DNA of 32,677 nucleotides from Elusimicrobiales bacterium (GCA_026416895.1 JAOAEH010000028.1:1-32677), one strand, 5' to 3'; numbered from the stretch's first letter, positions 2 through 32,450 are shown. A program made the numbers and translations. Notes: generated by a model not told the origin, from the sequence alone.

Positions 2-43
2 ACTCTTGAAACTTTTAAAGAAATCTATGAATCAAATAAATGA
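2..43 (+). CDS. Possible 3' end of a hypC-like gene (partial, runs off the left edge)
   Basis: Frame 2 is open from the window edge to TGA at 41-43 and encodes ...TLETFKEIYESNK*. It overlaps the hypD start, as hypC-hypD junctions usually do. The tail loosely resembles the acidic helical C-terminus of HypC. It is too short to confirm. Confidence 0.25.
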   Translation, partial: TLETFKEIYESNK

Positions 44-3853: not shown

Positions 3854-6120
3854 CTAAAAAGATAATTATAACTGGTACAGTACAAGGTGTAGGATTTAGA
3901 CCTTTTATTTATAATTTGGCAAAGTCTTTAAATCTTAAGGGAACAGTCTCAAATACATCGCAAGGTGTGTTAATATATGTAAATGTTAGCAATGATGAGG
4001 AATTAAGGAATTTCATAAAAAATATAAATGAAAAAAAACCTGTAAATTCTAAAATAGATAATATCTATATAGAAAATGTTAAAAATAAAGTTTTTAATGA
4101 TTTTGAAATAATTATAAGTAAAAATTCATCTAAAAAATCAGCTTTAATACCACCAGATCTAGCAATATGTAAAGATTGTGTTAGTGATATAGTGGATAAG
4201 TCAAATAGAAGATATTTATATCCTTTTACGAATTGTACTAATTGTGGTCCTAGGTTTTCAATAACGGAAAAAATTCCTTATGATAGAAAAAATACATCTA
4301 TGGGTATTTTTAGAATGTGTGGAAAATGTTTAGATGAATACAACGATCCTAATAACAGACGTTTTCATGCTCAACCTAATGCATGTCCTGTATGTGGACC
4401 GGAGGTTTGGGTAGTTTGGAAGGGTAAAAAGGTAAATGGTATAAAAGCGATAGATTTTATTGTAGAGAAAGTAGTGGAAGGAGAAGTGGTTTTAATTAAA
4501 GGTTTGGGTGGTTTTCATATTGCATGTGATGCTTTTAATTATAAAAGTGTAGAAAAAGTTAGAAAGATAAAAAAGAGAGAATTTAAACCTTTTGCTGTTA
4601 TGTTTGGAGATTTGTTTGAAATAGATAAATACTTGGAGCTTAATAGTCAAGAATCTGAAATACTTACATCGTCTGTTTCTCCAATAGTTATGCTTAAAAA
4701 AAAGGATTACAAAAATTTTGAATATGTTTCTCCAAAACTTGATTGTGTTGGTGTAATGATTCCATATACGCCATTACATTTGATTATTTTTAAAAAACTT
4801 AGAGAAAAAGGTTTTTTTAATCCTTTGGTTATGACTTCAGGGAACTTTAAAGATGAACCTATAATTACAGATAATGAAGAGGCTTTATCTAAATTTAATA
4901 AATTAGCTGTTTTATGTCATGATAGAGAGATAATAAATAGAGTAGATGATAGCATAGGATTTGTTGATGAGACAAATATTTTTAGGCTTATAAGAAGATC
5001 AAGGGGATATGTACCAAGTCCAATAAAATTATCTTATTCTTGTAATAAAGAGGTTTTTGCTTGTGGAGGGGATCTTAAAAACTCATTTGCTTTTTTGCGT
5101 GGTGAAGATGTCTTTTTATCCCAATATATAGGGGATTTGGATACTCAAGAAAATGCTGTTTATTATAAAAATACTTTTAATAATATAAAAAAACTTTATG
5201 ATTTTAAACCTACTGTTATGATTTGTGATATGCATCCACTTTATAGATCTTCTTTTATTGCATCAAATAATTTTAATATTGCTAAAAAAATATATGTTCA
5301 ACATCATATAGCTCATATATATTCGGTCATGGCAGAATATAACCTTTATGATAATTTAATTGGAATATCCTTTGATGGTACCGGTTATGGTATGGATGGC
5401 AATATATGGGGAGGTGAATTTTTTATACTCAAAAATAAAAAGATAACTAGAATATCTCATCTAGAAAATTTCTTTATATTTGGAGGAGACAGTTCTATTA
5501 AAGATATATGGAAAAGTTTTGTTTCTGTTTTTAGTGATAGAGAAGATTTTATTTTTAGAGTTCTAAAAGGTAAAGTAAATGAAGAAAAAATAAAGTTAGT
5601 ATTGAAATCTCTTAATAAGAAAATAAATGGTTTTTATAGTTCAAGCTGTGGAAGATTGTTTGATGCTTTTTCAGTAGTGGTTACTGGTAAAACTTATTCA
5701 GATTTTGAAGCAGAAGGTCCTATGAGAATGGAGACATTCCTTATTAAGGATCTTTTAGAAAGTTATAAATTTTCTATAGAGAAATATAATGGAAAATATA
5801 TTCTTAGATATTCAAATTTCTTAGATGAGGTAATTTATGATTATGAATATTATAGAGAGAAAATTTCTACTAAATTTCATAATTCTATTATAAATGTTAT
5901 TGTTGATATGTGCAATATTTTAAGAAAAGAATATTCTATAAATAATGTGGTTTTAAGTGGTGGAGTTTTTCAAAATAGATATATTTTAAATGGAGTAATC
6001 AAAAATCTTTCTATTTTTGGTTTTAAAGTATACTCAAATAGATTAGTTCCTTTAAATGATGGTGGAATTTCCCTTGGACAGATATATTGGAGTATTTGTA
6101 ATCATTCTTTTATTTTTTAG
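3850..6120 (+). CDS. hypF: Carbamoyltransferase HypF
   Basis: Acylphosphatase-like N-terminus (VQGVGFRPF). Two zinc-finger pairs (CKDC...CTNCGPR and CGKC...CPVCGP). YrdC-like LIKGLGGFHIACDA. Kae1-like C-terminal half with HHIAHI. The 756-aa length is typical. Confidence 0.95.
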   Translation: MTKKIIITGTVQGVGFRPFIYNLAKSLNLKGTVSNTSQGVLIYVNVSNDEELRNFIKNINEKKPVNSKIDNIYIENVKNKVFNDFEIIISKNSSKKSALIPPDLAICKDCVSDIVDKSNRRYLYPFTNCTNCGPRFSITEKIPYDRKNTSMGIFRMCGKCLDEYNDPNNRRFHAQPNACPVCGPEVWVVWKGKKVNGIKAIDFIVEKVVEGEVVLIKGLGGFHIACDAFNYKSVEKVRKIKKREFKPFAVMFGDLFEIDKYLELNSQESEILTSSVSPIVMLKKKDYKNFEYVSPKLDCVGVMIPYTPLHLIIFKKLREKGFFNPLVMTSGNFKDEPIITDNEEALSKFNKLAVLCHDREIINRVDDSIGFVDETNIFRLIRRSRGYVPSPIKLSYSCNKEVFACGGDLKNSFAFLRGEDVFLSQYIGDLDTQENAVYYKNTFNNIKKLYDFKPTVMICDMHPLYRSSFIASNNFNIAKKIYVQHHIAHIYSVMAEYNLYDNLIGISFDGTGYGMDGNIWGGEFFILKNKKITRISHLENFFIFGGDSSIKDIWKSFVSVFSDREDFIFRVLKGKVNEEKIKLVLKSLNKKINGFYSSSCGRLFDAFSVVVTGKTYSDFEAEGPMRMETFLIKDLLESYKFSIEKYNGKYILRYSNFLDEVIYDYEYYREKISTKFHNSIINVIVDMCNILRKEYSINNVVLSGGVFQNRYILNGVIKNLSIFGFKVYSNRLVPLNDGGISLGQIYWSICNHSFIF

Positions 6121-6883: not shown

Positions 6884-6957
6884 GCCCTCATCGTCTAGTG
6901 GCCTAGGACGCCGCCCTTTCAAGGCGGAAATCACGGGTTCGAATCCCGTTGAGGGCG
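6884..6957 (+). tRNA. tRNA-Glu (anticodon UUC)
   Basis: Hand-folded cloverleaf: acceptor GCCCTCA/TGAGGGC, D arm GTCT..GGAC, anticodon stem CCGCC/GGCGG with loop CTTTCAA, T arm ACGGG-TTCGAAT-CCCGT, discriminator G. 74 nt. CCA is not encoded. Confidence 0.93.
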
Positions 6958-7005
6958 CTTTTAATAATATTGACTTTCTATATAGATTTAGTTAAACTGT
7001 ATTTG

Positions 7006-15568: not shown

Positions 15569-15654
15569 GGGCAAGTGGCGGAACTGGTAGACGCGCAGGT
15601 CTCAAAAACCTGTGATCTTCAAAGATCATGAGGGTTCGACTCCCTCCTTGCCCA
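15569..15654 (+). tRNA. tRNA-Leu (anticodon CAA)
   Basis: Acceptor GGGCAAG/CTTGCCC plus discriminator A. Anticodon stem CAGGT/ACCTG with loop CTCAAAA. Long variable arm (GATCTT..AAGATC). T arm GAGGG-TTCGACT-CCCTC. 86 nt. Confidence 0.93.
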
Positions 15655-16517: not shown

Positions 16518-19307
16518 ATGGATAAGACAGAAAATAAATCTTTTTCTCACACTGTTTTTCTTCCAAAAACATCATTTTCTATGAAGGCAAATCTTGTTCA
16601 AAAGGAACCTCAGATTTTGAAATTTTGGCAAGAAAATTTTATTTATAGTAAAATGCTTAAAAAAAGAGAAAACTCTAAAGTTTTTTATCTTCATGATGGC
16701 CCTCCCTACGCTAACGGACATATTCATATAGGACATGCATTGAATAAAATTCTTAAAGATTTTGTAGTTAAATCTTATTCTATTTTGGGTTATAAAACTC
16801 CTTTTATTCCTGGTTGGGATTGTCATGGATTGCCAATAGAACAACAGCTTTTAAAGGAATTGAAGATATCTAAAAAAAATATTAATGATGTTTCGCTATT
16901 TAGAAAAAAAGCAAAAGATTTTGCTTTAAAATTTATAAATATACAAAGAGAAGAATTTAAAAGACTTGGGGTTTTTGGTGATTGGGATAGTCCATATATT
17001 ACGATGTCAAATCAGTATGAAGCTACAATAGTAAGAGCTTTTTTGGAATTGTTGGAAAAAGGATATATTGAGCGTGATAAAAAAACTATATATTGGTGTC
17101 CAATTTGTGAAACTGCTTTGGCAGATGCTGAAGTGGAGTATAAGGATAAAATTTCCCCATCTATATATGTAAAATTTAAAGTTTTATATTCAAAATTTAA
17201 TATTTCAAATTTATATCTTGTAGTATGGACTACGACGCCTTGGACGTTGCCGTCAAATATAGCAGTTGCTTTAAAAGAAGATGAATTTTATTCAATTATT
17301 AAAGTAGATAGACTATGTGAAGAATATCTTATTATAGCAACAAAATTAATTGAGGATTTTTCAAAAAATATAGATTATAGTTTCAAAGAAATAAAGAGAA
17401 TAAAAGGTTTGGATTTTGCAGATTTAGTATATGAAGCTCCATTAATTGAACTTTTAGATGAGTCACATAAATATCCAAGAAAAGTTATTTTTACCGATTT
17501 TGTAGAAATGTCAAGTGGGACTGGTATAGTTCATATAGCACCAGGTCATGGAGAAGAGGATTATCTCGCTTCTAGAAAGTGGAATCTTGAAGTTTTTTGT
17601 CCAGTTGATGAAGCTGGAAAGTTTACAAATGAAATTAAGGATCTTAACGGTAAATTTGTGTTTGAAGCAAACGAAGTTATTATTGAGATGTTAAAGAAAA
17701 AAAATATACTTATAAACTCATCTTCTATTTCACACAGTTATCCTCATTGTTGGAGGTGTAAGCAACCGATTATATTTAGAGCTACGAAACAATGGTTTCT
17801 AAAAATAGATAAAGGTAATTTGAGGGAAAAGCTTATTCAAGAGTGCAATAAAGTTAATTGGATACCATCTCAAGGATATGAAAGAATTACATCTATGATA
17901 AGAGTAAGGCCTGATTGGTGTTTGTCTAGACAGAGATATTGGGGAACACCTATAATTGCTTTTTGGTGTAGAAGATGTGGAAAACTTTTTGATGATTTTA
18001 AAGTTTTATATGCTATTTCTGATAGGATTGCTAAAGAAGGTAGCGATTTTTGGTTTACGGAAACTTCTTCTCAGATTCTTAAAAATTGTCAATGTGAGTG
18101 TGGAAGTAATGATTTTGAAAAAGAAAAAGATATACTTGATGTATGGTTAGATTCTGGAATATCATGGTATGCTGTTTGTAGGAATGTATCAAATGTCTAT
18201 CCAGTAGATCTTTATTTAGAAGGTTCTGATCAACATAGGGGATGGTTTCAGACCTCTCTCATTCCCTCAGTTGCTTTAAATTCAAAAGCACCATATAGGA
18301 CAGTTCTTACTCATGGTTTTGTCCTTGATGAGGATGGAAGGGCTATGCATAAATCATTGGGGAATGTTGTTTCTCCAAATGAGGTTATATCAAAATATGG
18401 TGCAGAGATACTTAGAATGTGGGTTGCTTTAAGTGATTGGAGAGAAGATGTTAGAATATCTGATTCATTACTTTCTGTTCCTATAGATTTATATAGAAAG
18501 ATAAGGAATACTTTTAGGTATTTAATTGGTAGTCTTTCAGATTTTTCCACATCTAAGAAAATAGAAATAGAAAATATGACAGATATTGATAAGTATATAC
18601 TATCTAGATTAACAGATACTGTTGAAGGTATAAAATTAGATTGGCAAAAATATGATTACAAAACTGCAACAAAGAGAATTGTAGATTTCTGTATAATTGA
18701 TCTTTCTTCTTTTTATCTTGATGTTTTAAAAGATAGACTTTATACTTTTCCCCTTAATTCTAAAGAAAGAAGATCTTCTCAAACAGCAATATATGAGATT
18801 TTGAAAGTTTTAAGTGTAGTTTCTGCTCCTATTATATCTTTTACTTGTGAGGAAGTTTGGCAAGTATTTAGAAATGAGGTTGATCCTTCTTTATCAGAAA
18901 GTGTTTTTCTTAATAATTTAGATGATGTTTATAAACCATATAAAAATGTAGAAATAGTTGAGAAATACAATAATATACTTAAAATAAGAGAAAATATATT
19001 AAAAGAGATTGAACTAGTTAGAAAAAGAGGTGAAATAGGTTCTTCTTTAGAATGCAAGATAGTAATAGAAGCTGATGGTGATTTATATTCCTTTATAAAA
19101 TCAAATATTTCTGAAATAACAATGGCATGCATAGTTTCTCAAATAGAAGTTGTTAAAGGTGATTTTAAGATAATGGTTAGGAAGGCGGACGGTAAAAAAT
19201 GTCCTAGATGTTGGCAATGGAGAACTGATATAGGTAAAGATGAGAATTATCCTCAGTTATGTTTAAAGTGTGCAGATGCTATTAAAGAAAATGCTAAATA
19301 TTTTTAA
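16518..19307 (+). CDS. ileS: Isoleucine--tRNA ligase (type 1, with C-terminal zinc finger)
   Basis: HIGH motif (PYANGHIHIGHAL), KMSKS variant (KSLGN), editing-domain WTTTPWTLP, and C-terminal CPRCWQW...CLKC. Confidence 0.97.
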   Translation: MDKTENKSFSHTVFLPKTSFSMKANLVQKEPQILKFWQENFIYSKMLKKRENSKVFYLHDGPPYANGHIHIGHALNKILKDFVVKSYSILGYKTPFIPGWDCHGLPIEQQLLKELKISKKNINDVSLFRKKAKDFALKFINIQREEFKRLGVFGDWDSPYITMSNQYEATIVRAFLELLEKGYIERDKKTIYWCPICETALADAEVEYKDKISPSIYVKFKVLYSKFNISNLYLVVWTTTPWTLPSNIAVALKEDEFYSIIKVDRLCEEYLIIATKLIEDFSKNIDYSFKEIKRIKGLDFADLVYEAPLIELLDESHKYPRKVIFTDFVEMSSGTGIVHIAPGHGEEDYLASRKWNLEVFCPVDEAGKFTNEIKDLNGKFVFEANEVIIEMLKKKNILINSSSISHSYPHCWRCKQPIIFRATKQWFLKIDKGNLREKLIQECNKVNWIPSQGYERITSMIRVRPDWCLSRQRYWGTPIIAFWCRRCGKLFDDFKVLYAISDRIAKEGSDFWFTETSSQILKNCQCECGSNDFEKEKDILDVWLDSGISWYAVCRNVSNVYPVDLYLEGSDQHRGWFQTSLIPSVALNSKAPYRTVLTHGFVLDEDGRAMHKSLGNVVSPNEVISKYGAEILRMWVALSDWREDVRISDSLLSVPIDLYRKIRNTFRYLIGSLSDFSTSKKIEIENMTDIDKYILSRLTDTVEGIKLDWQKYDYKTATKRIVDFCIIDLSSFYLDVLKDRLYTFPLNSKERRSSQTAIYEILKVLSVVSAPIISFTCEEVWQVFRNEVDPSLSESVFLNNLDDVYKPYKNVEIVEKYNNILKIRENILKEIELVRKRGEIGSSLECKIVIEADGDLYSFIKSNISEITMACIVSQIEVVKGDFKIMVRKADGKKCPRCWQWRTDIGKDENYPQLCLKCADAIKENAKYF

Positions 19308-19764
19308 TGATAGAAGATTATTAGGAACCTTAATTGTTGTGTTTGTCTTTTTAATTGATGTTATCTCGAAAAATTATGTTATTAAAAATCCATCATTGTG
19401 GTTTAAATCATACCTTTGTAATTTTATAAATATTCATATTATTGAAAATACTGGAGTTGCTTTTGGTATGTTTAAGGGGCATAATGATTTTTTTATAGTT
19501 TTTAATAGTATAATTCTTTTGTTTCTTTTTTATTTTAAAAGAAATATAAGATCTAATATTTCTTTTTATGGTATTCATTTTATAATAGGGGGAGCTATAG
19601 GAAACATTTTTGATAGAATAAAATATGGATTTGTTATTGATTTTATAGATTTAAGATTTTTTCCTGCAATTTTTAATTTTGCTGACTTTTTTATTACGGT
19701 AGGTATTTTTATGCTTGTAGTGGATGAGTTTTTTTTAAAAAAGGGAGGTTTAGGTGAAAAATAA
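19291..19764 (+). CDS. lspA: Lipoprotein signal peptidase (signal peptidase II)
   Basis: ENTGVAFGMF, GGAIGNIFDR and FNFADFFI (catalytic Asp motifs). The ileS-lspA synteny is conserved. Start is ATG 19291 or 19270. Both overlap the ileS 3' end. Confidence 0.9.
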   Translation: MLNIFNDRRLLGTLIVVFVFLIDVISKNYVIKNPSLWFKSYLCNFINIHIIENTGVAFGMFKGHNDFFIVFNSIILLFLFYFKRNIRSNISFYGIHFIIGGAIGNIFDRIKYGFVIDFIDLRFFPAIFNFADFFITVGIFMLVVDEFFLKKGGLGEK

Positions 19765-19785
19765 GTTTTTTTATTTATTTTTTTG
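19754..19785 (+). other. Out-of-frame lipoprotein signal-peptide start (GTG, MKNKFF...) separated from the TPR frame by one base, spanning two T7 tracts
   Basis: GGGAGG SD at 19743-19748, then GTG at 19754 encoding MKNKFFYLFF in frame +2. T7 runs lie at 19766-19772 and 19778-19784. One extra T in either run joins it to LLSCSQSTEYY..., the TPR frame. Confidence 0.7.
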
Positions 19786-20679
19786 CTTTCTTGTTCTCAG
19801 TCTACGGAATATTATCTTAAAAGGGGAAATTCATTTTTTATTGCAGGAGATTATTATAAAGCAATTAATATTTATACTACAGCTATATTAAAAGATCCAA
19901 CTTATGCAGATGCTTATTTTTATAGGGCTATGGCTTATGAAAGGATAAGCGATAAAACAAAAGCAATTGACGATTATATAAAGACAATTACATATAACCC
20001 CACCTATATTGCTGCTTATAATAATCTCGCATCTATTTATATAGAGTCTTCTTTATATGATAAAGCTCTCTATTATATAGAAAAGTCTCTTGAAATTAAC
20101 TCGTCTTATAGGTATGCTTATTATAATAGAGGTTTAGTATATTATTTTACTAAAAAATATTTAGATGCTATTAAAGATTTTACAAAAGCAATTGAATTAT
20201 CAGAAAAAAAGATGTATATTGCCTATTATTATAGAGCATTATCGTATTTAAAGCTTTCAATGCCGCTTGAAGCTATAAAGGATATAAACTATCTTATAGA
20301 AAAAGGAAATGAAAGTGATGTAATTTATTACACATTGGCAAAAATATTTTATAATACTAATAACTTTAATTCTGCAATAGAGAATATAAATAAAGCTATA
20401 AATATAAAAGAGGATGCTAATTATTATTATCTCAGAGCTAAAATAAATGAAAAGCTTAATGAAATTATTCAAGCGATTGATGATATAAATAAAGCAATAA
20501 AACTTTCAAATTTTTCAAGGGTTAATTACTTTTATTATGCTGCTGATTTATATCTAAAATTAAAAGAATATGCTAATGCTAAAAGATATTGTGATATGGC
20601 TTTAGAAATTGAACCTTCTTCTAAAGGGGAATATGAAATAAGAATTTCAGCTATTAAAAGCAAAACCAAAGTTAAATAA
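19783..20679 (+). CDS. TPR-repeat protein, probably a lipoprotein (N-terminus disrupted or recoded)
   Basis: About 8 TPR units (for example AYFYRAMAYERISDKTKAIDDYIKTITYNP). As sequenced, the ORF can only start at TTG 19783, immediately before the lipobox-like LSC. See the frameshift finding. Confidence 0.85.
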   Translation: MLSCSQSTEYYLKRGNSFFIAGDYYKAINIYTTAILKDPTYADAYFYRAMAYERISDKTKAIDDYIKTITYNPTYIAAYNNLASIYIESSLYDKALYYIEKSLEINSSYRYAYYNRGLVYYFTKKYLDAIKDFTKAIELSEKKMYIAYYYRALSYLKLSMPLEAIKDINYLIEKGNESDVIYYTLAKIFYNTNNFNSAIENINKAINIKEDANYYYLRAKINEKLNEIIQAIDDINKAIKLSNFSRVNYFYYAADLYLKLKEYANAKRYCDMALEIEPSSKGEYEIRISAIKSKTKVK

Positions 20680-20681
20680 AA

Positions 20682-22685
20682 ATGAGTTTAAAAGAAAAAA
20701 TTTTTTCGACAAGAATTGCTATTGAAAAAATTCTGTTTGAAAAAGAAGTAATTTCAGAAAGAAAACTTCAAAAAAAATATTATTATTATCTTTTTTTTGT
20801 TTTTTTTGTTTATTTTTTTGTAAATCTTTTGTATTTTTATTTCAATAGTAACATAATTAGTTATAAGATTTCAAATTTTAACTTTTCTAAGCTTACTTTA
20901 AGTGAGATTTTATTTCATAGTGATTATTTTACTTCTTCTTTTGAAATGCCTTTTTATGCTTTAGTTTTAAAATTAGTTTCTTTAGTGTTTAAACTAAATA
21001 GCTGGACTATTTTTATAATAAATATTTTTGCAAGCATGTTTGGTCTTTTAGGATATTATTTACTTATAGCAAAAACAAGAAATGAGCAGGCAGGATTGAT
21101 TGGTGTTATTGCACTTATTTCTACTCCTTTTTTTATTAATCTTACAAGACAACTATCAAGTAATATATTTTCTTTTGTCTTTTTAGTTTGGAGTTATTAT
21201 TATTATGTTCGTATTAAAACTCAAGTTCAACATAATTCTATTCCATATTTTGTTATTTTTTATTCTCTTGGTTTATTGTCAGATAAGTTTTTTATTTTAT
21301 ATACTCTTCCTTCTTTTTCGTTTATAAGTTTTTTGTTTAATACTGTATATTCAAGCTATATACTTTTAATATTTATTCCTTCTTTTATTATTTCGATTAT
21401 TTTTTATATTAGATTCTTAATTTTGTTTTTAATTAAATATTCTTTTAGTACTGATTTTGTATTAAGATATTTTAATTTTAAAGAGATTTTTCATTTGTAT
21501 TTTAATTATTTTGGTTTGATCCCATTTTTTATTATTTTTCCTTTTTTTATATGGATGATTTTTTCTGTATATAATCCATATATTTGTAAAAAGGAAATAT
21601 TTAAATGGTTTTTTTATCCTCTATTAATTTTTTTTATTGTTTCAATATCTCCTGAAGTTATTGGTTTTACAATTCCAGCAATAGTAATTGGTTTTTCCGT
21701 TATGAGTTTTAGTGCTATAAGAAAGAAATTAGGTTACTTTTTCATGATTTTATTTATTTTGTCTTTTATAAAGGCTTCGCCTTTAGATATTAGAGGATAT
21801 AAATTGTGGGGTGTGATTGATGGTTTTGATGAACATAAAATAGTTAGGCATATTATGTATGCTATTTCTAATGAAGATAATTTAAAAAAAGGTGAAGTTT
21901 ATGTAGCAGTAAAGTTTCATAAAAAAAATATAAATTCTCATTCTTTTGAAGCTTTAAAAGAAAAATATATGCTTAAAAATTTGAAATTTAGAGATTTTGC
22001 TGAAGAGTTTTTGCCTTTTTCATGTTATTTAATTACTGATAAAAAAACAGATGGACTTGAAAGTTTTAATGAAGTTTTTTTTTATAAGGGAGTTTATTTA
22101 CTGAAAAATCCTTTTTGTTTTTATAAGTTTAGTGGGGAATCTTATTTTATACCAAAGATTAAAATTTCGAATATGGAAATTTCTGATATAAATTTTAAAG
22201 TTATTAATAATTTTTCTACAGATGGTGTTAAAGATTTATATGTTGATATTGGTTATTTGGGATATAATGGGATTGATTTTTATGGTATTAAAGGTATATT
22301 TAAAGATGCTATTGTTAATAGCGATAATAAATATTTTATTTCTAATTTTTCAACTTTTGAAATAAAAAGTGTAATAATAAATCAATATTCAATTGAATCA
22401 GTTTTGGAGTCTAAGAAAAAAACTGATATTGAGGTAGTATTTATGAAAAACATTATTAAATTTTTAAAAAATTTTGGTTTTTTTGATTTCGTTATATCTC
22501 TTTCTCCAGAAATTAAAGATAATACTATTTATTTTAGAGCTCTTAATATAAAAATAGGTGATATCAAGTTGGGGGCTTTTTTTTCTGATTTTTTTGTTTT
22601 TAAATTATCATTTGAAAAACTTAATTTTCCTTTAAAGTTTTCAAAAATTTATATTGGGAATGAACTTATTAAATTATCATCATGA
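20682..22685 (+). CDS. GT-C-fold (ArnT/PMT_2-like) membrane glycosyltransferase-like protein with a ~300-aa C-terminal soluble domain
   Basis: The N-terminal ~360 aa have at least 10 TM helices, and the region FYALVLKLVSLVFKLNSWTIFIINIFASMFGLLGYYLLIAK...ALISTPFF is typical of ArnT/PMT_2-like proteins. I do not recognise the C-terminal half. The family call is from pattern only. Confidence 0.55.
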   Translation: MSLKEKIFSTRIAIEKILFEKEVISERKLQKKYYYYLFFVFFVYFFVNLLYFYFNSNIISYKISNFNFSKLTLSEILFHSDYFTSSFEMPFYALVLKLVSLVFKLNSWTIFIINIFASMFGLLGYYLLIAKTRNEQAGLIGVIALISTPFFINLTRQLSSNIFSFVFLVWSYYYYVRIKTQVQHNSIPYFVIFYSLGLLSDKFFILYTLPSFSFISFLFNTVYSSYILLIFIPSFIISIIFYIRFLILFLIKYSFSTDFVLRYFNFKEIFHLYFNYFGLIPFFIIFPFFIWMIFSVYNPYICKKEIFKWFFYPLLIFFIVSISPEVIGFTIPAIVIGFSVMSFSAIRKKLGYFFMILFILSFIKASPLDIRGYKLWGVIDGFDEHKIVRHIMYAISNEDNLKKGEVYVAVKFHKKNINSHSFEALKEKYMLKNLKFRDFAEEFLPFSCYLITDKKTDGLESFNEVFFYKGVYLLKNPFCFYKFSGESYFIPKIKISNMEISDINFKVINNFSTDGVKDLYVDIGYLGYNGIDFYGIKGIFKDAIVNSDNKYFISNFSTFEIKSVIINQYSIESVLESKKKTDIEVVFMKNIIKFLKNFGFFDFVISLSPEIKDNTIYFRALNIKIGDIKLGAFFSDFFVFKLSFEKLNFPLKFSKIYIGNELIKLSS

Positions 22686-22933
22686 AAATTTTTTATGGGT
22701 TTTATTTATTTATTTGTAATTTTTATGAAATAAAAAATTATAGCCGAAACATTTATTTTACTGAGTATAAGCATAGTTATTGTTCATTACATTTTTGTTT
22801 TTATTCTAATGAAACTATTCCTTTAAGAAAATTTACAGGTAAGGCAGAAGAAATTTGTTATTACTTTGTTTCAAATTATAAATTTTCTCTATTAAACTAT
22901 CCATATATAGGAAATAATTCTAATTATGTTTAA
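22682..22933 (+). CDS. Small Tyr/Phe/Cys-rich hypothetical protein (83 aa)
   Basis: ATGA overlap with the upstream gene. An 83-codon stop-free frame is unlikely by chance at this AT content. It contains HSYCSLHFC (H-x2-C-x2-H-x-C). No recognisable family. Confidence 0.45.
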   Translation: MKIFYGFYLFICNFYEIKNYSRNIYFTEYKHSYCSLHFCFYSNETIPLRKFTGKAEEICYYFVSNYKFSLLNYPYIGNNSNYV

Positions 22934-23111
22934 TTTAAGTTCTGAGATGATTTTAGGTAATAATCTGTCGTACCTAGATAATCTTGTTTTATTAGTTTAT
23001 TTTATTATAGCTTATGAGAGTTTTTCACTTTTTGTTAGAGATTTGTTTAAAACTGGTGAACTTAAATTATCTTCATTAAATTATTTGGAAGGGATGTTTT
23101 TTAAAATGTGA
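22926..23111 (+). CDS. Small hypothetical protein with one hydrophobic helix (61 aa)
   Basis: The ATG overlaps the upstream stop by 8 nt. There is a central hydrophobic stretch, LVLLVYFIIAY. No recognisable family. Confidence 0.4.
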   Translation: MFNLSSEMILGNNLSYLDNLVLLVYFIIAYESFSLFVRDLFKTGELKLSSLNYLEGMFFKM

Positions 23112-23126
23112 AAAGTTGTTAAAATA

Positions 23127-24896
23127 ATGGCAATATATAAACTTTTGATATCCCTTGATGAGAGTTATAATAATAAAGTTTATAATTCTATCTATGAGAA
23201 TGTAAGAAAAATGGGAGGGGTAATATCCATAGAGGTTTTTAATTTAAGTGGGGTTATAAAAGTAATTTATGATAATACAGCTGTTACTTATGAAAAGATT
23301 ATTTCAAGAATATTAAGTTTTAATGTTAAAATAGAGAATTATTATATAGAAAACGAACAACATTTTAAACATAGTTATAAATATAATTCATTAGGCTTTA
23401 ATAAGTTAATTTTTTTGATATTGTTTTTTTTGGTTTTTTATTATTCAGATAAATTTTCAACTAATAAATATTTATCTTTTATTATTTATTTTTTTCTTAT
23501 AAGTTGGGTAAGTTATGACTTTATTTTGATAGGGAAACAAGATAAAAGATATACAAAGTTATATTATATTACTGTTTTGTATTTTTTTTCACTTTTTTTA
23601 TATAAATTGATAATCATTTTATTTCCAAATTTGTCTCTTGATGATTTTATAAGTTGGCACATAATAGCTTTCTTTTTATTGATTATAAGTATTGGTTTTC
23701 ACCTTTTTCATTATCTTTTAGCTAAAAATGAAGCTTATCTTGAAAATGTTAGAAGATTTATGCCATCGTTTGTTAATGTAGTAAAGAAAGATAGAATAGA
23801 AAAGGTAAGCATTGATGATTTAATTGAAGATGATATTGTTATATTTAAAAAAGGAGATTTCGTATGTTTGGATTCTTTTGTTGTTTCTGGTAAAGCTTTT
23901 GTTGATGAATCTTTAATTAACGGAAAATTTGGTTTGGTAGAAAAGAAGGAGGGAAGTGATGTTTTATCTGGTTCTTTTGTAATTGATGGAGAAATACAAG
24001 TTAAAGTATTGAAAAGGCCTAAGTTTTCAAATTTTTTTAATATTTTATCTTCTTTGTCAAAGTATTATCAAAAAGGAGTAGATTTTATCTATATTCCTAT
24101 TATTATATTTAGAAAGTATTTGGTTTATATTCCATTTGTAATTTTTTTAATTGTTTTTTTATCTATTAAAAAGTATATAAGTTTTAATGTAATAGAATCG
24201 TTTTTTATTTCCTTTTTCATTGTTTATCCATCTTTGATATGGTTAATTTTTCCTATTTTGTATATGTTTTGCTCTATTTCTAGTGTAAAGAAGGGATTTT
24301 ATATAAGAAATATTAATTCAGTAATACCTATTATTTTTTCAAATACAATTGTTTTTTTCAGTAATAAAAGAATAGATTTACAAACTATTAGAAAACTTAA
24401 AGAAAATGGTTTTGAAACGGTTTTAATTTCAAGTTTTAAAGATAATAAAGAATCTAATTTTGATATTAGTTATTATGAAATTCCATGTGTACAAAAAGAA
24501 GGATTTATAATTAAAATGAAAATGAAAGGAAAAAAAATAATTTCTGTAGGTTATTCTGTTGAAGATCTAGTCGCATTATCAGCTTCTGATGTGTCTGTTA
24601 TTACAGCTTTTCATCCACAGTTATATTCTTTTAATTGTGATGTTGTTCTTTTAAGGGATGAGCCTAATATTATTGTTGACTTAAAAAAATATTCTAGTTT
24701 TATATATAACATAATAAAACAGAACTCTTATTTAGTAATTTTATTTAATTTTTTAATACTCCCTTCTATTCTGGTATTAATTAACATGAATGGTATTTTT
24801 TTACCTATTGATAATTTAGTTTTTTATTTAACAATGTTTATATTTTTTATAATTGTTATAAATTCTGTAAGAATATATTTGTTTTTTAAAAATTAG
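23127..24896 (+). CDS. Degenerate P1B-type (heavy-metal) ATPase homologue lacking catalytic motifs and the N-domain
   Basis: HMA-like N-terminal fold without CxxC. Actuator-domain match (GDFVCLDSFVVSGKAFVDESLINGKFGLVEKKEGSDVLSGSFVIDGEIQVKV). TM6 reads YPSLIWLIFP where CPCALGLATP is expected, and TIVFFSNKR where vvFDKTGT is expected. This runs directly into the second half of the P-domain (LKENGFETVLISS, VGYSVEDLVALSASDVSV, DVVLLRD) and two C-terminal TM helices. Confidence 0.7.
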   Translation: MAIYKLLISLDESYNNKVYNSIYENVRKMGGVISIEVFNLSGVIKVIYDNTAVTYEKIISRILSFNVKIENYYIENEQHFKHSYKYNSLGFNKLIFLILFFLVFYYSDKFSTNKYLSFIIYFFLISWVSYDFILIGKQDKRYTKLYYITVLYFFSLFLYKLIIILFPNLSLDDFISWHIIAFFLLIISIGFHLFHYLLAKNEAYLENVRRFMPSFVNVVKKDRIEKVSIDDLIEDDIVIFKKGDFVCLDSFVVSGKAFVDESLINGKFGLVEKKEGSDVLSGSFVIDGEIQVKVLKRPKFSNFFNILSSLSKYYQKGVDFIYIPIIIFRKYLVYIPFVIFLIVFLSIKKYISFNVIESFFISFFIVYPSLIWLIFPILYMFCSISSVKKGFYIRNINSVIPIIFSNTIVFFSNKRIDLQTIRKLKENGFETVLISSFKDNKESNFDISYYEIPCVQKEGFIIKMKMKGKKIISVGYSVEDLVALSASDVSVITAFHPQLYSFNCDVVLLRDEPNIIVDLKKYSSFIYNIIKQNSYLVILFNFLILPSILVLINMNGIFLPIDNLVFYLTMFIFFIIVINSVRIYLFFKN

Positions 24897-25377
24897 TTTT
24901 GATCATACATTTAAATCTTTTAATAGTGTGATGTATTGCTATTATAAAAAAAATTGTTGATGATTGGATATGCAATGAATAAAGTGTTTGTCTGTGACTG
25001 TCAAGTATTGAAAAGTAGAGAAAAAAACCACTTAAAGAGGATATTATTGTAGAGATAAGAAGTATCCAATTTAAAATTAATCTGATATTTTTAATTCTCT
25101 TATTTAAAAATTCAGCAAGTATAATTATAATGATACTTATAATAATAACTTGAGGTAAAGCATGTCTAAAAATCTTTTTATCTTTTATTTTTTTATAATT
25201 TATATCTTCTCTTTCATTTTTTTCTTCATTATATTTTTCCCAAATATCACATATTCCATTGGTGTTGTTATCAATAAAGCTTTGACATATTCCATAACAT
25301 GGGGTAGAATATGAAATTCCAACACATTCGGTTTGAGCAGATATTAAGGATGTTATAACTGTAAGTATCAAAATCAT
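24886..25377 (-). CDS. Secreted-Cys-motif / DUF4405-like small membrane protein
   Basis: Signal peptide, then a 4-Cys segment (ECVGISYSTPCYGICQSFIDNNTNGICD), then 3 TM helices with conserved-looking His residues (LHIQSS...AIHH), as in DUF4405. ATGA-coupled to the hydrolase gene. Confidence 0.55.
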   Translation of the reverse strand: MILILTVITSLISAQTECVGISYSTPCYGICQSFIDNNTNGICDIWEKYNEEKNEREDINYKKIKDKKIFRHALPQVIIISIIIIILAEFLNKRIKNIRLILNWILLISTIISSLSGFFLYFSILDSHRQTLYSLHIQSSTIFFIIAIHHTIKRFKCMIKTNF

Positions 25378-26225
25378 TTATTACTCCTTATAAATTCATT
25401 CACTATTTTTTTATATTTTTTATTAATAAGAGTTTCTCCATGAGTTAATTCTTCCATAAGTTCAACTTTTAATAGAGGATTGATTTTAGAATAGTCTCTA
25501 GTTTTTGAATTATAACATAGATTATCTTTAGTTCCACATATAAATAAAGTTGGGGATTTGATATCTTGTATTGACTTGTTTATATTAAATTTGTCTATTT
25601 TTTCTCCACAAAATATCTTATATTTTATTCCCATAAAATAAATTATAGGATATTTCATAATGTGATAATTTTTTAGTATGTTTAACATTGTGGATTTTAT
25701 GCTTATAAAAGGAGAATCAGATATTACAAATTTTAAATTTTCAATTTCAGAAGCAGCTCTTAAAGCTAAAAAAGCACCATAAGAATAACCAAAAAGAGCT
25801 ATATCTAAAAAACCTTTTTCATTTAAAAAGTTTATCCATTTTTTTATATCTTCTATTTCATATTTCGATCCACATACATATCCTTGACTTTCTCCAAGGC
25901 CTCTTATATCTATATACAAAAGTGTAGCAAATTCATGCAAAAAATAAGTAAATGGAAGAATATCGGATTTGTCTGCAGGCCAACCATGCATTAATATTAT
26001 TGCAAGTTTTTCTTTTTTATTTTCAATTAACCACCCTTTTAAGATATGATTTTTTGAACTTATACTTACTTTTTGCCATTTAAGATTAAATTCTGAAGGA
26101 TTTGTTTGTTCTTTTAATCTTTTTGGTTTGGAATATAAAAAAAATATAAATGAAGATAAAACAAATGTTATTATTGTAAAGTATAATAGAAATTTTATAA
26201 TAATTTTTGTAAACAGATTTTTCAT
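25374..26225 (-). CDS. Membrane-anchored alpha/beta-fold hydrolase
   Basis: N-terminal TM helix, HGWP oxyanion region, nucleophile elbow GYSYG, later DSPF and THGE (candidate Asp and His). Confidence 0.8.
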   Translation of the reverse strand: MKNLFTKIIIKFLLYFTIITFVLSSFIFFLYSKPKRLKEQTNPSEFNLKWQKVSISSKNHILKGWLIENKKEKLAIILMHGWPADKSDILPFTYFLHEFATLLYIDIRGLGESQGYVCGSKYEIEDIKKWINFLNEKGFLDIALFGYSYGAFLALRAASEIENLKFVISDSPFISIKSTMLNILKNYHIMKYPIIYFMGIKYKIFCGEKIDKFNINKSIQDIKSPTLFICGTKDNLCYNSKTRDYSKINPLLKVELMEELTHGETLINKKYKKIVNEFIRSNK

Positions 26226-26300: not shown

Positions 26301-27353
26301 GTGAATATAAATAAAGATGATATTTCAAGAGTTTCTCGAAATTTTTTGGTTGTAGAACCAAAAAATATTGAAATAGTATATATGGATAATTTTGAAAAAG
26401 GAAATAGACTTGATATGTTTAGGGCTATTAATGTGGGCAAAAAGTCAGAAATTAGGTTTAAGATACTTTCAGATTTTTATTTTAATCAATTTATATTATC
26501 TGTGTCTCCGTATATGAATGATTCAAATACTATGTCTGTTTTTTGTGATTTTAATAGCAAAAGATATTATTTAGGAAATTTTTCTGTGTCAAGTTCTAAG
26601 AGTTTTCCTCTACAAGATGAAGAAGTTAAAGTTGATATTGATGTTTTATGTTTTAAAAATAGAATTTCTAGTTTAGATGCTGGTATAATTTTCTGGGGAA
26701 ATGGAAAGAAAGGTATAAAGCTTGTTAATTTAATTATGACTGATACAGATAAAAGATTTTTTTATGAAAATTTTTTTCCAAAAAAATATGTAAATATTGA
26801 TATTCCTAAAATTTCACAAATTAGTCAAGGAGTTGAATATAACACAAGAATATGTAGTCCTACATGTATTTCAATGGTTTTAAAATATTATAATTTTAAT
26901 ATAGATCCGGTTTGTATTTCAAAAAATGTCTATGATAATTCTTCTCATATATATGGAAACTGGTTTTTTAACACTGCCTATGTTTCATATCTTGGTTTTT
27001 ATTCATTTGTAGCAAGAATAAATTCTTATAGTTTTCTCTATAAAATTTTAAGCAAAGAAATACCTGTAATAGCAACTATTTCTTTTGACGAAGGAGAACT
27101 TAAAAATTCTCCATTACAAAGAACTAAAGGGCATTTAGTAGTTATAAAAGGAATGACAGAGAAGGGAGATATAATAGTTAATGATCCTGCAGCATCGAGT
27201 GAAAAAGAGGTTGAAAGAATTTATGATTCTTATGAATTTTTTAGGAGTTGGATAGTTAATAAGTATGGTACTTCTTATTTCATTTTAGATGATAAAAAGA
27301 TAGAAGATGTTATAAAGATTTTTGAAGAAGATAATGAGGTGAGATATGAATAG
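26301..27353 (+). CDS. Peptidase C39-like (C39_2-type) cysteine peptidase domain protein with an unknown N-terminal domain
   Basis: C-terminal half: NTRICSPTCISMVLKYYNF (catalytic Cys context) and KGHLVVIKGMTEKGDIIVNDP (His context). The GTG start at 26301 is uncertain. The next in-frame ATG is at 26382. Confidence 0.7.
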   Translation: MNINKDDISRVSRNFLVVEPKNIEIVYMDNFEKGNRLDMFRAINVGKKSEIRFKILSDFYFNQFILSVSPYMNDSNTMSVFCDFNSKRYYLGNFSVSSSKSFPLQDEEVKVDIDVLCFKNRISSLDAGIIFWGNGKKGIKLVNLIMTDTDKRFFYENFFPKKYVNIDIPKISQISQGVEYNTRICSPTCISMVLKYYNFNIDPVCISKNVYDNSSHIYGNWFFNTAYVSYLGFYSFVARINSYSFLYKILSKEIPVIATISFDEGELKNSPLQRTKGHLVVIKGMTEKGDIIVNDPAASSEKEVERIYDSYEFFRSWIVNKYGTSYFILDDKKIEDVIKIFEEDNEVRYE

Positions 27354-29079
27354 AAAAATTTATTTTATTTTTCTATTTTTTGTTTTTTCATGTTCAAAAT
27401 TTAATTATGATAATAAAATATTATATTTTGCACATACAGGAGAAGTTACCTCACTAGATCCATCTTATTCATATGATGCAGTTACTCATGGAACTTTAAT
27501 TAATATTTATGAAACACTGATAGGGTTTGATGGGGAGAAACTTGATAGTTTTATACCATTAATATCTATGAAAGTACCATCAAAGGAGAATGGTCTTATT
27601 TCAAAAGATGGTACTATTTATATTTTTCCTATAAGAAGTGGTATAAAATTTCACAATGGTGATGAACTTACTCCTGAGGATGTAAAATACTCTCTTTTGA
27701 GATTTATGATAACAGATATGCCAGGGGGGCCATCTTCTCTACTTTTAGAACCTATATTTGGAATATCGTCTATTAAAGATGAAAAAAATAATTTAAGAAT
27801 TACTAAAGATCAATTTGAAAGAGCTATTAAAATTGAGGGTAATAATGTTATTGTTAAACTTGAGAAACCATTTTCTCCATTTTTAGCTATTATAGCTAGA
27901 TGGTCTTACATTTTAAACAGTAAATTTGCAATAAAATTAGGAGAATGGGATGGTAAATATGAAACAATAACTAATTATTTAAATAGACCAAAAGACAAAT
28001 CAGCTCTTTTAAATAAAGAATGCGGAAGTGGTCCATTTTTTGTTTCAAGTTGGGATCCCTCAAAAAAGCAAATAATTCTTAAATCATTTGATAATTATTG
28101 GAGAGGTAAAAGTCATTTATCTATGGTTATCCAGAAAACAGTTAATGAATTTTCAACACGGAAATTGATGATAGAGAGAGGAGATGCTGATATAATAGAA
28201 GTTCCTCGTATATATGAAACTCAAGTTGAAGGTCTAAAAGATGTAAAGGTTTATTCGCAATTAAAAAGGCTTTCAGTTGACCCTGTTTTTTTCTTTACTT
28301 TTGACATAAATAGTGTAGCAAATCCAGATATAGGCAGCGGTAAGCTTGATGGGAATGGTATACCACCTGATTTTTTTAAAGACAAAGATATAAGAAAAGC
28401 TTTTGCTTATTCATTTAATTATGATGTTTTTCTTAAAGAAAGTCTAAAAAATAAAGCTGAAAGGGCTTACTCTCCTGTTCCAAATTCTTTGCTTTTATTA
28501 GATAAAATAAAGAAATATGATTATGATATCCAAAAAGCTCGATATCATTTTAAAAAGGCTTTCAATGGTAGAGTTTGGGATAAAGGTTTTAGATTTACAC
28601 TTACTTATAATCTAGGAAGTGACATTAGACAAATTGCTTGTGAAATATTAAAAAAAGAAATTGAATCAATAAATCCTAAATTTAAGATAGATATAAGAGG
28701 TATAGATTGGGCTCTTTATTTAGAAAAAGCTCAAAATAAAAAAATGCCAATTTTTACTAGAGGTTGGGTTGGTGATTATGCAGATCCTCATAATTTTATT
28801 TTTGCTTTCTATCATTCTGATGGAAGATATCCAAAAACACAAGGGTTTTCAAACAAAGAATTGGATAGATTGATTGAATTTGCTGTCAAAGAGAATGATT
28901 GGAAGAAAAGAAAAGAGATTTATGAAAAGATAATAAATATAGCCAATGAAGAAGTTTATCAGATATATACTGTTTATCCATATGGAATTATAGCCTTAAG
29001 AGAAGAGATAAATGGTTTTATTGACAATCCAATTATGATGGGAATTTATTATTATAATATTTCTAAGAATAAGAAATGA
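27346..29079 (+). CDS. ABC substrate-binding lipoprotein, family 5 (peptide/nickel type)
   Basis: Lipoprotein signal MNRKIYFIFLFFVFSCS. SBP_bac_5 pattern (LDPS..YD, FHNGDELTPEDVKYS, GSGPF, GWVGDYADP). GAGGTGAG SD. Confidence 0.88.
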   Translation: MNRKIYFIFLFFVFSCSKFNYDNKILYFAHTGEVTSLDPSYSYDAVTHGTLINIYETLIGFDGEKLDSFIPLISMKVPSKENGLISKDGTIYIFPIRSGIKFHNGDELTPEDVKYSLLRFMITDMPGGPSSLLLEPIFGISSIKDEKNNLRITKDQFERAIKIEGNNVIVKLEKPFSPFLAIIARWSYILNSKFAIKLGEWDGKYETITNYLNRPKDKSALLNKECGSGPFFVSSWDPSKKQIILKSFDNYWRGKSHLSMVIQKTVNEFSTRKLMIERGDADIIEVPRIYETQVEGLKDVKVYSQLKRLSVDPVFFFTFDINSVANPDIGSGKLDGNGIPPDFFKDKDIRKAFAYSFNYDVFLKESLKNKAERAYSPVPNSLLLLDKIKKYDYDIQKARYHFKKAFNGRVWDKGFRFTLTYNLGSDIRQIACEILKKEIESINPKFKIDIRGIDWALYLEKAQNKKMPIFTRGWVGDYADPHNFIFAFYHSDGRYPKTQGFSNKELDRLIEFAVKENDWKKRKEIYEKIINIANEEVYQIYTVYPYGIIALREEINGFIDNPIMMGIYYYNISKNKK

Positions 29080-30818: not shown

Positions 30819-31624
30819 TGGATTGTATATATACAAAAGAGTATTTTTTAACCCAATGTGAGGGTTTTAGAAGTTTTAAATCTTCTGGTGGCTTTTTTTT
30901 GTCAAAAAGACTTAAAAAAGTTTATGATATAGTTTCAAGTTATAATTTTTCAAGAATTCTTGATTTTGGTTGTGGTAGAGGAGAGTTTTCTCTTAAATTT
31001 TCATTAAATGGTGTTGAAGCTTATGCGTGTGATGTATCAGATGATGCTATTGAAATTGCAAATTCATTAAAAAATAAATGGGAGAAAAAAAGGGGTAAAC
31101 TTCCATTTTATATATTTAAAATAATTAACAGCAAACTTCCATTTGAAAATTCATTTTTTGATGCTTGTGTGATGAATGATGTTGTTGAACATATAGAAAA
31201 GAAAGAGCTTATGAATGTTTTTGAGGAAATATTTAGGGTTTTAAAGCCACAAGGTAAGATCTTTATTCATACTTCTCCTGGTAAGTTATTTATTAAATAT
31301 GGTCTTTTTTTGTATCGTATTGTTGGTTTTTTTACAGGTTTTAGATTTGATTCAAATTTAAAAGATATACTTCCAGATGGGTTAAAAAAGCCATATCATA
31401 TAAATGAATTAAGTGTTTGGGAAATTAAAAAATTTTTAAAATCAATAGGTTTTGAAAAAGTAAAGTATTCTTTATGGAAGAATCCTCATTATATTTATTA
31501 TTTTACAGGTAGTGATAGATTTTTAAAAATTATTAGAAAAATCTCGTTTTTAATACCTTTTAAAGAAATTGTATATTCAGATATTTTTGTTTATGCTGAA
31601 AAAGGAGGAAATGATGGTACTTGA
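30818..31624 (+). CDS. Class I SAM-dependent methyltransferase
   Basis: Motif I ILDFGCGRGEF, post-I acidic residue (ACDVS), and motif II/III (VMNDVVEHI, LKPQGKIFI). Confidence 0.85.
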   Translation: MDCIYTKEYFLTQCEGFRSFKSSGGFFLSKRLKKVYDIVSSYNFSRILDFGCGRGEFSLKFSLNGVEAYACDVSDDAIEIANSLKNKWEKKRGKLPFYIFKIINSKLPFENSFFDACVMNDVVEHIEKKELMNVFEEIFRVLKPQGKIFIHTSPGKLFIKYGLFLYRIVGFFTGFRFDSNLKDILPDGLKKPYHINELSVWEIKKFLKSIGFEKVKYSLWKNPHYIYYFTGSDRFLKIIRKISFLIPFKEIVYSDIFVYAEKGGNDGT

Positions 31625-32450
31625 AAAAATACATGAATTTAAAGCTGCAAAAACTGGAGTGAATAAAGTTTTGACTATAGGAGAGTTTATTTTTAGTTGT
31701 GATAGTGATGATTTTTTGAGAAAATGGGATATTTCTAATTATAATTTATTAAAAGAAGTTAAGGCACATGATAAAAATATTCAAGGTATATGTAAAAGTC
31801 CAAATTTATCCAGTTTACTATCTTATAGTGATGATGGTAGTGTTAAAGAGTTTGATTTAGAACTTAGACAAGTTTTCGACTATCCATCACATGAAGGTAG
31901 AGTAAATGATCTTACTTTTATAGATAAAAATAGATTTATTACTGCATCAGATGATGCTACTGTGAGAATATATAAGCTTAGTTCTTATTCCTTTAAAGAG
32001 AAAGATTTAAATATTGGAGATATTGAGTCGGTATGTGTTGTTAATGGTAAAGTATTGATTGGGGGTTCTAAATTAATTGTATGTGATTTAGACCTTGAAG
32101 AAATTGCTTCATTTGACAATGATTATATTTATGGAATAGATTTTATATATACAGATGGAAAGATGATATATCTATCAAGGTCAATGGAAAAAAAACTTGA
32201 AGTTAGAGACATTAATATGAATTTAATTAAAATTATTAGAATGCCATCATGGATAAAGTATATTTCATCATATTTAGATTACTTATTTGTGTCAGTTTCA
32301 GATCAGATAATTGTGTATGATAAAGAGTTTAGAGAAATTGCTATTAGTAATTTTTCATCATCAGAGATAAATTCTTTTGCGTTTTATGATAAAAATATAA
32401 TTATTGCTTTTGATGATGGATATATCAGAATTTGGAAAATAAATATTTAA
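31614..32450 (+). CDS. Compact seven-bladed WD40-like beta-propeller protein
   Basis: Seven ~40-aa repeats ending in WD-like dipeptides (SCDSDDFLRKWDI, SYSDDGSVKEFDL, TASDDATVRIYKL, ... AFDDGYIRIWKI). AGGAGG at 31603-31608 favours ATG 31614, with 31611 also possible. The ORF-track start at 31569 is unlikely. Confidence 0.75.
   Translation: MVLEKIHEFKAAKTGVNKVLTIGEFIFSCDSDDFLRKWDISNYNLLKEVKAHDKNIQGICKSPNLSSLLSYSDDGSVKEFDLELRQVFDYPSHEGRVNDLTFIDKNRFITASDDATVRIYKLSSYSFKEKDLNIGDIESVCVVNGKVLIGGSKLIVCDLDLEEIASFDNDYIYGIDFIYTDGKMIYLSRSMEKKLEVRDINMNLIKIIRMPSWIKYISSYLDYLFVSVSDQIIVYDKEFREIAISNFSSSEINSFAFYDKNIIIAFDDGYIRIWKINI

Follow-up and report, generated by a model that had tools for sequence, protein, structure and literature searches.

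What is encoded between positions 20,682 and 24,896 of JAOAEH010000028.1:1-32677, a 32,677-nucleotide (nt) stretch of DNA from an Elusimicrobiales bacterium (GCA_026416895.1; the whole stretch is termed here the window)? A first interpretation, made without database searches and termed here the sequence-only reading, saw four translationally coupled membrane genes, encoding a 667-residue GT-C-like protein, two small proteins of 83 and 61 residues and a catalytically dead P-type ATPase, appended to ileS, lspA and a lipoprotein gene, and proposed that they form an envelope-modification or lipoprotein-decoration complex. All of these open reading frames (ORFs) exist where that reading placed them. 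Comparison with related genomes suggests, first, that the stretch is part of a six-gene block of which the window is, on the alignments described below, the most eroded copy known; second, that the two small ORFs are what is left of one gene; and third, that the ATPase-like protein is the relic of a copper pump that has outlived its chemistry. As a descriptive and evolutionary account of the block this is well supported by the comparisons and is considered very probable; with the mechanism proposed below added to it, the explanation as a whole is still judged rather probable.

The block was delineated from 14 related loci (referred to by numbers such as L001), which were collected through protein searches and a scan of genome contigs and which come from metagenome-assembled genomes of Elusimicrobia or Elusimicrobiales. 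Every locus that reaches far enough has the same gene order: ileS, lspA, a gene for a lipoprotein with tetratricopeptide repeats (TPR), a GT-C glycosyltransferase gene, a gene of 231-266 codons, and the ATPase gene or its relic. Within the window, the block lies on the + strand and begins with ileS at 16518-19307 (an ORF of 929 codons, 87% identical to its L001 orthologue and with tRNA-synt_1 and Anticodon_1 domains recorded on orthologues), which is followed at 19270-19764 by lspA, the 164-residue lipoprotein signal peptidase II (Peptidase_A8, E=1.4e-29; TIGR00077, 95.6 bits against a cut-off of 73.95). In each of the related genomes found, homologues of the genes in question lie side by side, as the sequence-only reading had supposed; its count of four genes becomes three (GT-C, peptidase-like and ATPase), the peptidase-like gene being dead in this genome. 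The link to ileS and lspA, which that reading took as a clue to function, says little, this being a widespread housekeeping pair.

The block is found only in one Elusimicrobia clade. A profile of the GT-C family run against 185,579 GTDB species genomes retrieved two loci, both in Elusimicrobia, and none elsewhere, and a search of 5.8 billion proteins retrieved 8 GT-C, 12 peptidase and about 9 short-ATPase clusters, all of them, where named, from this clade; three of the proteins retrieved were relatives of the relic. (The most distant peptidase match, L011, is accompanied by neither a GT-C nor an ATPase partner.) The expectation that the combination is new holds: no described system with these parts was found. 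Across the clade the alignments show a nested series of losses leading towards the window. The pump's entire nucleotide-binding domain (N-domain) goes first, then all of its catalytic and metal-binding motifs, and third the HExxH...E zinc site of the neighbouring peptidase; in the window itself, as a fourth step, the peptidase-like gene is broken by a deletion of about 250 nt and by frameshifts.

The first two steps concern the gene at 23127-24896, whose 589-residue product is, judging by homology, a descendant of a CopA-type Cu(I) pump. E1-E2_ATPase alone among Pfam models is detected on it (E=6e-20), with no HAD/Hydrolase match; TIGR01525 gives E=1e-29 and 103.7 bits, far under its cut-off of 346; and the closest sequences in the PDB are the Cu(I) pumps CopA and ATP7B (E about 1e-12). 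What the ancestor looked like can be seen in L010, the orthologue of which (724 residues) is a canonical Cu(I) P1B-1 pump with CASC, TGES, CPC, DKTGT, GDGLND, YN and MxxSS. The pump of L012 (8792-10969) is also full length and is placed with it in group A; there DKPGT and GNGLND replace DKTGT and GDGLND, substitutions by which it may already be impaired. All short forms have one clean deletion of the N-domain in common, about 130-150 residues being missing relative to L010. In group B (L005, L008, L013 and P0146) the N-domain is gone, TGE or TGQ is kept together with GDGxND, and DKT is sometimes kept; in the intermediate forms of L006 and P0199 more motifs have been lost than in group B; and in group C (L001, L002, L004, L007, L014, L015 and the window) all of them have. 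Elsewhere the gene has decayed differently: in L009 (8798-10565) the protein ends after the fourth transmembrane (TM) helix, at 387 residues, and is followed by a separate ORF of 109 codons, which is a second, independent kind of ATPase decay.

In the window, the residues aligned with CxxC of the HMA domain read ESYNNKVY, those at TGE of the A-domain NGK, those at CPC VYPS, those at DKTGT FFSNK (FDKTGTLT in L010), those at TGD of the P-domain ISS, those at GDGxND VGYSVED, and those at YN and MxxSS FN and TMFIF, respectively. The relic nevertheless retains an HMA-like domain, the TM helices, the A-domain and a remnant of the P-domain, all of them devoid of signature motifs. Relative to the CopA-type P1B-1 ATPases of Legionella pneumophila (3RFU) and Archaeoglobus fulgidus (3J08/3J09), it is thus homologous over the TM core, the A-domain and the P-domain remnant and has the same domain order, with the HMA-like domain first; it differs from them in lacking the N-domain, CxxC, TGE, CPC, DKTGT, TGD, GDGxND, YN and MxxSS. 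The earlier verdict of a dead P1B-ATPase is therefore confirmed, and in a stronger form than it was given, the N-domain and every catalytic or metal-binding motif being gone. As far as its motifs allow a prediction, the relic cannot bind ATP, be phosphorylated or bind Cu(I) in any known way. One feature that does persist is KMGGV within the HMA-like domain, which is nearly invariant in all forms (KMGGL in L008 and L013, RMGGI in L009).

Loss of the N-domain was also noted outside the clade. Three CopA-like proteins, P0189 (589 residues), P0275 (608 residues) and P0150 (738 residues), lack it and keep intact DKTGT, CPC, TGES, GDGIND, YN and MxxSS; such N-domain-less P1B proteins with a full catalytic set may represent an undescribed form that recurs, or an artefact that does so. 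Separately, the idea that the pump served to metallate the neighbouring zinc peptidase was considered and set aside: the ancestral-type pump of L010 bears signatures for Cu(I), not Zn(II), and metal delivery is further contradicted by group B, where the peptidase zinc site is retained though the pump is dead.

The later steps of the series concern the peptidase. Between the GT-C and ATPase genes, all 14 related loci carry a single intact lipoprotein gene of 231-266 codons, whose product bears a signal peptide with a lipobox (for example LVSC, FFSC or FYSC). The positional orthologues of L005, L008 and L010 match Peptidase_MA_2 (PF13485) at 6e-12 to 6e-14. An M1-like HExxH-x18-E site (HEITH…WLNEGLA) is intact in L005, L008, L010, L012 and L013 and takes the form HELTH in L009; it has been lost in L001, L002, L004, L006, L007 and L014, and the window's own group reads SEIFSH…WLYYG. 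In other words, the orthologues of the deeper relatives resemble the Peptidase_MA_2, M1-like gluzincins in being lipoproteins with HExxH-x18-E, from which the window's subgroup differs by loss of the zinc site and the window's copy by being a pseudogene split into two ORFs.

That pseudogene, at 22682-23126, was recognized through orthologue translations, DNA alignment, blastp and three-frame translation. By blastp, residues 2-75 of the 83-residue ORF (22682-22933) correspond to residues 4-76 of the 231-residue protein of L001, the nearest relative (51% identity, E=1e-22), and residues 1-52 of the 61-residue ORF (22926-23111) to its residues 161-216 (64%, E=2e-17). Residues of about 77-160 in L001, the segment that holds the zinc site in the deeper relatives, are without a counterpart in the window, where the corresponding DNA has been deleted: the alignment reveals an internal, frame-changing deletion of about 250 nt with its junction at about 22907-22925, which may have occurred between two short TATCCAT repeats. 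Two further deletions of 1 nt, near 23082 and at 23097-23103, cause the 61-residue ORF to terminate early; the tail that it has lost (…FGRDVF) can still be read in another frame. Because the lesions are several and independent, they point to real decay rather than to a single assembly slip. Searches of Pfam and NCBIfam with the two small ORFs returned no match. The 83- and 61-residue ORFs are thus best understood, from these alignments, as the N- and C-terminal debris of one decayed Peptidase_MA_2-like gene.

By comparison, the GT-C gene (20682-22685, 667 codons) looks intact and constrained, with a ratio of nonsynonymous to synonymous substitution rates (dN/dS) of 0.35 between the window and L001. 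Its product matches PMT_2 (PF13231) over residues 90-226 with 30.2 bits (cut-off 26.1; E=6e-7), and eight of nine family members match this model, the best at E=1.3e-9. An AlphaFold2 model (predicted local distance difference test score, pLDDT, 77; predicted template-modelling score 0.73) consists of a polytopic TM domain at about 31-362 followed by a beta-rich C-terminal domain at about 365-667. When this model was compared with the PDB by Foldseek, the top 24 of 24 matches were GT-C enzymes, each with probability 1.0 (ArnT, STT3/OST, AglB, PglB and ALG9/12), ArnT 5EZM at E=2.6e-5. The classification as GT-C, proposed from the sequence alone, is upheld by both lines of evidence. So is the claim of a large soluble domain without known counterpart: residues 365-667 modelled alone (pLDDT 74.5) and compared with the PDB gave nothing significant (best E=0.04, probability 0.09).

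Beyond the PMT_2 match and the fold, the protein resembles GT-C enzymes such as ArnT (GT83) and the protein O-mannosyltransferases (GT39) in that its N-terminus is cytoplasmic and its first periplasmic loop long; an acidic residue that is invariant in this loop may be a further shared feature. This residue belongs to [E/D]88-M89-P90-x-Y92, which lies between TM1 and TM2 and is invariant in 13 loci, as is D201-K202 in a later loop; the C-terminal domain has invariant residues of its own across the same loci. The differences are that the window protein has no sequence match to solved members and that its C-terminal beta-rich domain, of about 300 residues, has no PDB counterpart.

Directly upstream lies the TPR lipoprotein gene (19754-20679), of which the intact ORF, at 19783-20679, comprises 298 codons (TPR_1, E=1e-38). 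Its ancestral GTG start, at 19754, overlaps the lspA stop as it does in relatives, and lies in the +2 frame relative to the TPR ORF. The T-run at 19766-19772 is one T short; a run of eight in place of seven would restore VKNKFFLFIFLLSCSQ. With this T absent, the window retains a lipobox (L-S-C) whose h-region lies in another frame, and the signal peptide is thereby broken. Nearly all of the relatives' TPR proteins begin M/VKxxxFLLFLFLFSCSQ, with a canonical lipobox. A true frameshift would account for the loss of frame, as would a sequencing error, for example in the homopolymer. Of the TPR lipoprotein named in the sequence-only reading, the repeats and the lipobox stand; the signal peptide is out of frame in the sequence as assembled. 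No further gene of the window is disrupted in length relative to its relatives (L001 where overlapping).

A mechanism that could unite these parts may be outlined as follows. The GT-C enzyme would move a sugar from a polyprenyl-phosphate donor to an acceptor in the periplasm, which would be an envelope protein or else a glycolipid. The TPR lipoprotein encoded upstream would be the likeliest acceptor-binding helper. Fusions of PMT_2 with TPR repeats exist elsewhere, for example in the eukaryotic TMTC enzymes; the window would represent a split version of such fusions, the TPR protein being a separate lipoprotein rather than part of the enzyme. The relic would persist in the membrane without catalytic activity, most constrained in its HMA-like and A domains on the cytoplasmic side, and may partner the GT-C enzyme, much as non-catalytic subunits serve oligosaccharyltransferase. 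A joint action of enzyme, TPR helper and relic partner is offered tentatively and considered unlikely in this full form. More doubtful still is the specific proposal that the CopA relic was recruited as a partner of the GT-C enzyme, in a structural or regulatory capacity, by way of its membrane core and the two domains (HMA-like and A) in the cytoplasm. For the relic, the role of scaffold or sensor that the sequence-only reading assigned to it would fit the purifying selection described below, but is made less likely by two losses of single partners, the truncation of the ATPase in L009 and the decay of the peptidase-like gene in the window.

There is a partial parallel for the setting. In the Corynebacterium ppm operon, and for actinobacterial Pmt, lipoprotein acylation is linked to glycosylation: a single transcription unit combines lipoprotein-processing genes with that of a glycosyltransferase dependent on a polyprenyl-phosphate sugar. 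The window differs in having lspA rather than lnt, and no gene for a Ppm or other polyprenyl-phosphate sugar synthase occurs within it; lipoproteins as acceptors would here be suggested by analogy alone. A literature search combining Elusimicrobia, glycosyltransferase and lipoprotein found nothing relevant. As to why a copper pump should have come to lie beside lspA and a lipoprotein gene, the acylation of lipoproteins in E. coli is inhibited by copper (PMC6593411), and an ancestral link of CopA to lspA and lipoproteins through this inhibition is a speculative explanation.

The most serious rival holds that there is no functional module at all: the genes are neighbours merely through compact, co-oriented and syntenic packing, the GT-C enzyme stands alone, and the relic has an unrelated role or is slowly being lost. 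This is a real contender, judged to fall somewhat short of an even chance, and several observations that weigh against the mechanism just outlined speak for it. Genes on the same strand are tightly packed throughout the window: at about 20 of 25 junctions they overlap or lie at most 18 nt apart, unrelated genes included, as in the runs hypD-LysR-hypE and M23-bactofilin-SurA-ABC. No observation joins the three proteins in a common process. Within the clade, gene order is highly conserved across all of the 20-30 kb, the unrelated C39_2, SBP_bac_5, HhH-GPD, LplA and QueF genes being equally syntenic, and ileS, equally unrelated, shares the block along with lspA. The parts, moreover, are lost singly: the L009 ATPase is truncated to 387 residues beside intact GT-C and peptidase genes, and the window has lost its peptidase-like gene while keeping the other genes. 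The account given here is limited in other ways, too: the nested pattern of decay follows a single lineage in one clade and is unreplicated, and within the window both the deletion and the T-run frameshift are known from the assembled sequence alone. Finally, the Foldseek TM-scores of the GT-C model are only 0.26-0.36, which are low because the C-terminal domain does not align, and the family profile, searched against PDB sequences, matches no solved GT-C enzyme; the catalytic residues therefore cannot be mapped, and E88 is not equated with the catalytic Asp of ArnT or PglB.

Two observations are not readily explained by packing. In all loci that extend far enough, the six genes remain adjacent while both flanks change: upstream, L009 and L010 carry different genes from the other loci; downstream, a convergent gene pair is absent in L008, L013 and L010; and in L012 an inversion begins directly 3' of the ATPase and QueF genes. 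Furthermore, GT-C, peptidase and ATPase families with these features were found only in combination with one another, and in no other clade. Translational coupling, on the other hand, on which the sequence-only reading had leaned, does not discriminate. Both the ATGA overlap of the GT-C gene with the 83-residue ORF and the 8-nt overlap between the two small ORFs are real, and the 15-nt gap named as the largest between ileS and 24896 is present, but 18 nt separate the lspA stop from the TPR ORF; above all, overlaps between genes are the rule throughout this region and genome and are hence uninformative, which leaves functional coupling unproven. (A scan of 15.5-26.5 kb for promoters and terminators gave the same counts as shuffled sequence and found no internal terminator, and is likewise uninformative.)

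A second rival, that the ATPase-like gene is a functionless pseudogene on its way out, would account for the disappearance of the N-domain and of all catalytic and metal-binding motifs and for the shortened L009 copy; and the dN/dS of the relic between the window and L001, 0.40 at dS 0.69, clearly exceeds the values for housekeeping genes (0.11-0.23; for that pair ileS has 0.11, and the TPR gene 0.16). The bootstrap confidence interval of 0.31-0.50 nevertheless excludes 1, and constraint is strongest in particular parts of the protein, namely the HMA-like domain (0.18), in which the KMGGV motif is conserved throughout, and the A-domain (0.27). In group B (L008 against L013) the ATPase dN/dS is 0.087, like that of ileS there (0.065). 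Full-length frames of 580-604 codons persist, moreover, in at least 10 genomes of 25-36% GC, spanning a divergence at which ileS is only 65% identical, and an open frame of 589 codons cannot persist by chance at 25% GC. Being still under purifying selection, the relic is a pseudoenzyme and not a pseudogene, and the rival is held to be very improbable. Hardly credible, finally, is the original proposal of four coupled genes that include two real small membrane proteins in an envelope- or lipoprotein-decoration complex: the ORFs and overlaps do exist, and the start codon of the 83-residue ORF is still the ancestral one, at its overlap with the GT-C stop, so that translation of this ORF may persist, but the supposed conserved small subunits are fragments of a gene that is intact in 14 of 14 relatives, separate ORFs of this kind occur in none of those loci, the N-terminal fragment has only a degenerate lipobox (F-I-C), and the C-terminal fragment is cut early by a further frameshift.

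As for the remainder of the window, its GC content is about 25.6%, with a steady positive GC skew, and the + strand carries nearly all genes. ORFs of 50-90 codons arise commonly by chance at this composition, and about half of the listed ORFs of at least 50 codons are antisense or overlapping. Downstream of the relic, a gene on the - strand (24886-25377), convergent with it and overlapping its 3' end by 11 nt, encodes a 163-residue membrane protein, rich in Cys in its N-terminal part, that gives a weak DUF4405/cytochrome-b561-like match. It forms a pair (24886-26225) with a second - strand gene, for a 283-residue alpha/beta hydrolase; at this place the pair occurs only alongside a fully degenerate relic, being absent there in L008, L013, L010, L012 and L009. 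Beyond it, at 26301-29079, lie genes for a Peptidase_C39_2-like protein of 350 residues (in L008 and L013 fused to an NlpC/P60 domain, to give 640 residues) and for an SBP_bac_5 solute-binding protein, and at the contig end, at 31569-32450, a gene for a WD40 beta-propeller protein. The opposite end of the window (6-6120) holds the hydrogenase maturation genes hypD, hypE-like (AIRS) and hypF, with a LysR-type regulator and an unassigned ORF of 269 codons interposed; all overlaps among these genes are of 4-8 nt. An Rfam scan found two tRNAs, tRNA-Glu(TTC) at 6884-6958 and tRNA-Leu(CAA) at 15569-15654, and nothing else. A terminator-like match at 15630-15646 was rejected as being the T-arm of tRNA-Leu.

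The locus carries, to begin with, a caution for annotation: when a gene of an AT-rich genome breaks in two, its halves can mimic an overlapping pair of small genes. A GT-C enzyme with an unmatched periplasmic domain and an adjacent TPR lipoprotein is, at the level of a hypothesis, a candidate for an undescribed envelope glycosylation in Elusimicrobia. Next to nothing has been described of bacterial pseudoenzymes that descend from P-type ATPases, and a full-text search of the literature for them found nothing. Here one genomic slot provides a natural series, from a working CopA-type pump through a form without the N-domain to a motif-free form under purifying selection. If the proposed partnership is true, the relic would be the first P-type 'pseudo-pump' of a bacterium to have a defined new function, and the graded intermediates would document the transition to it; and, with this series from pump to relic at hand, what the P-type scaffold can do without its chemistry becomes directly testable.

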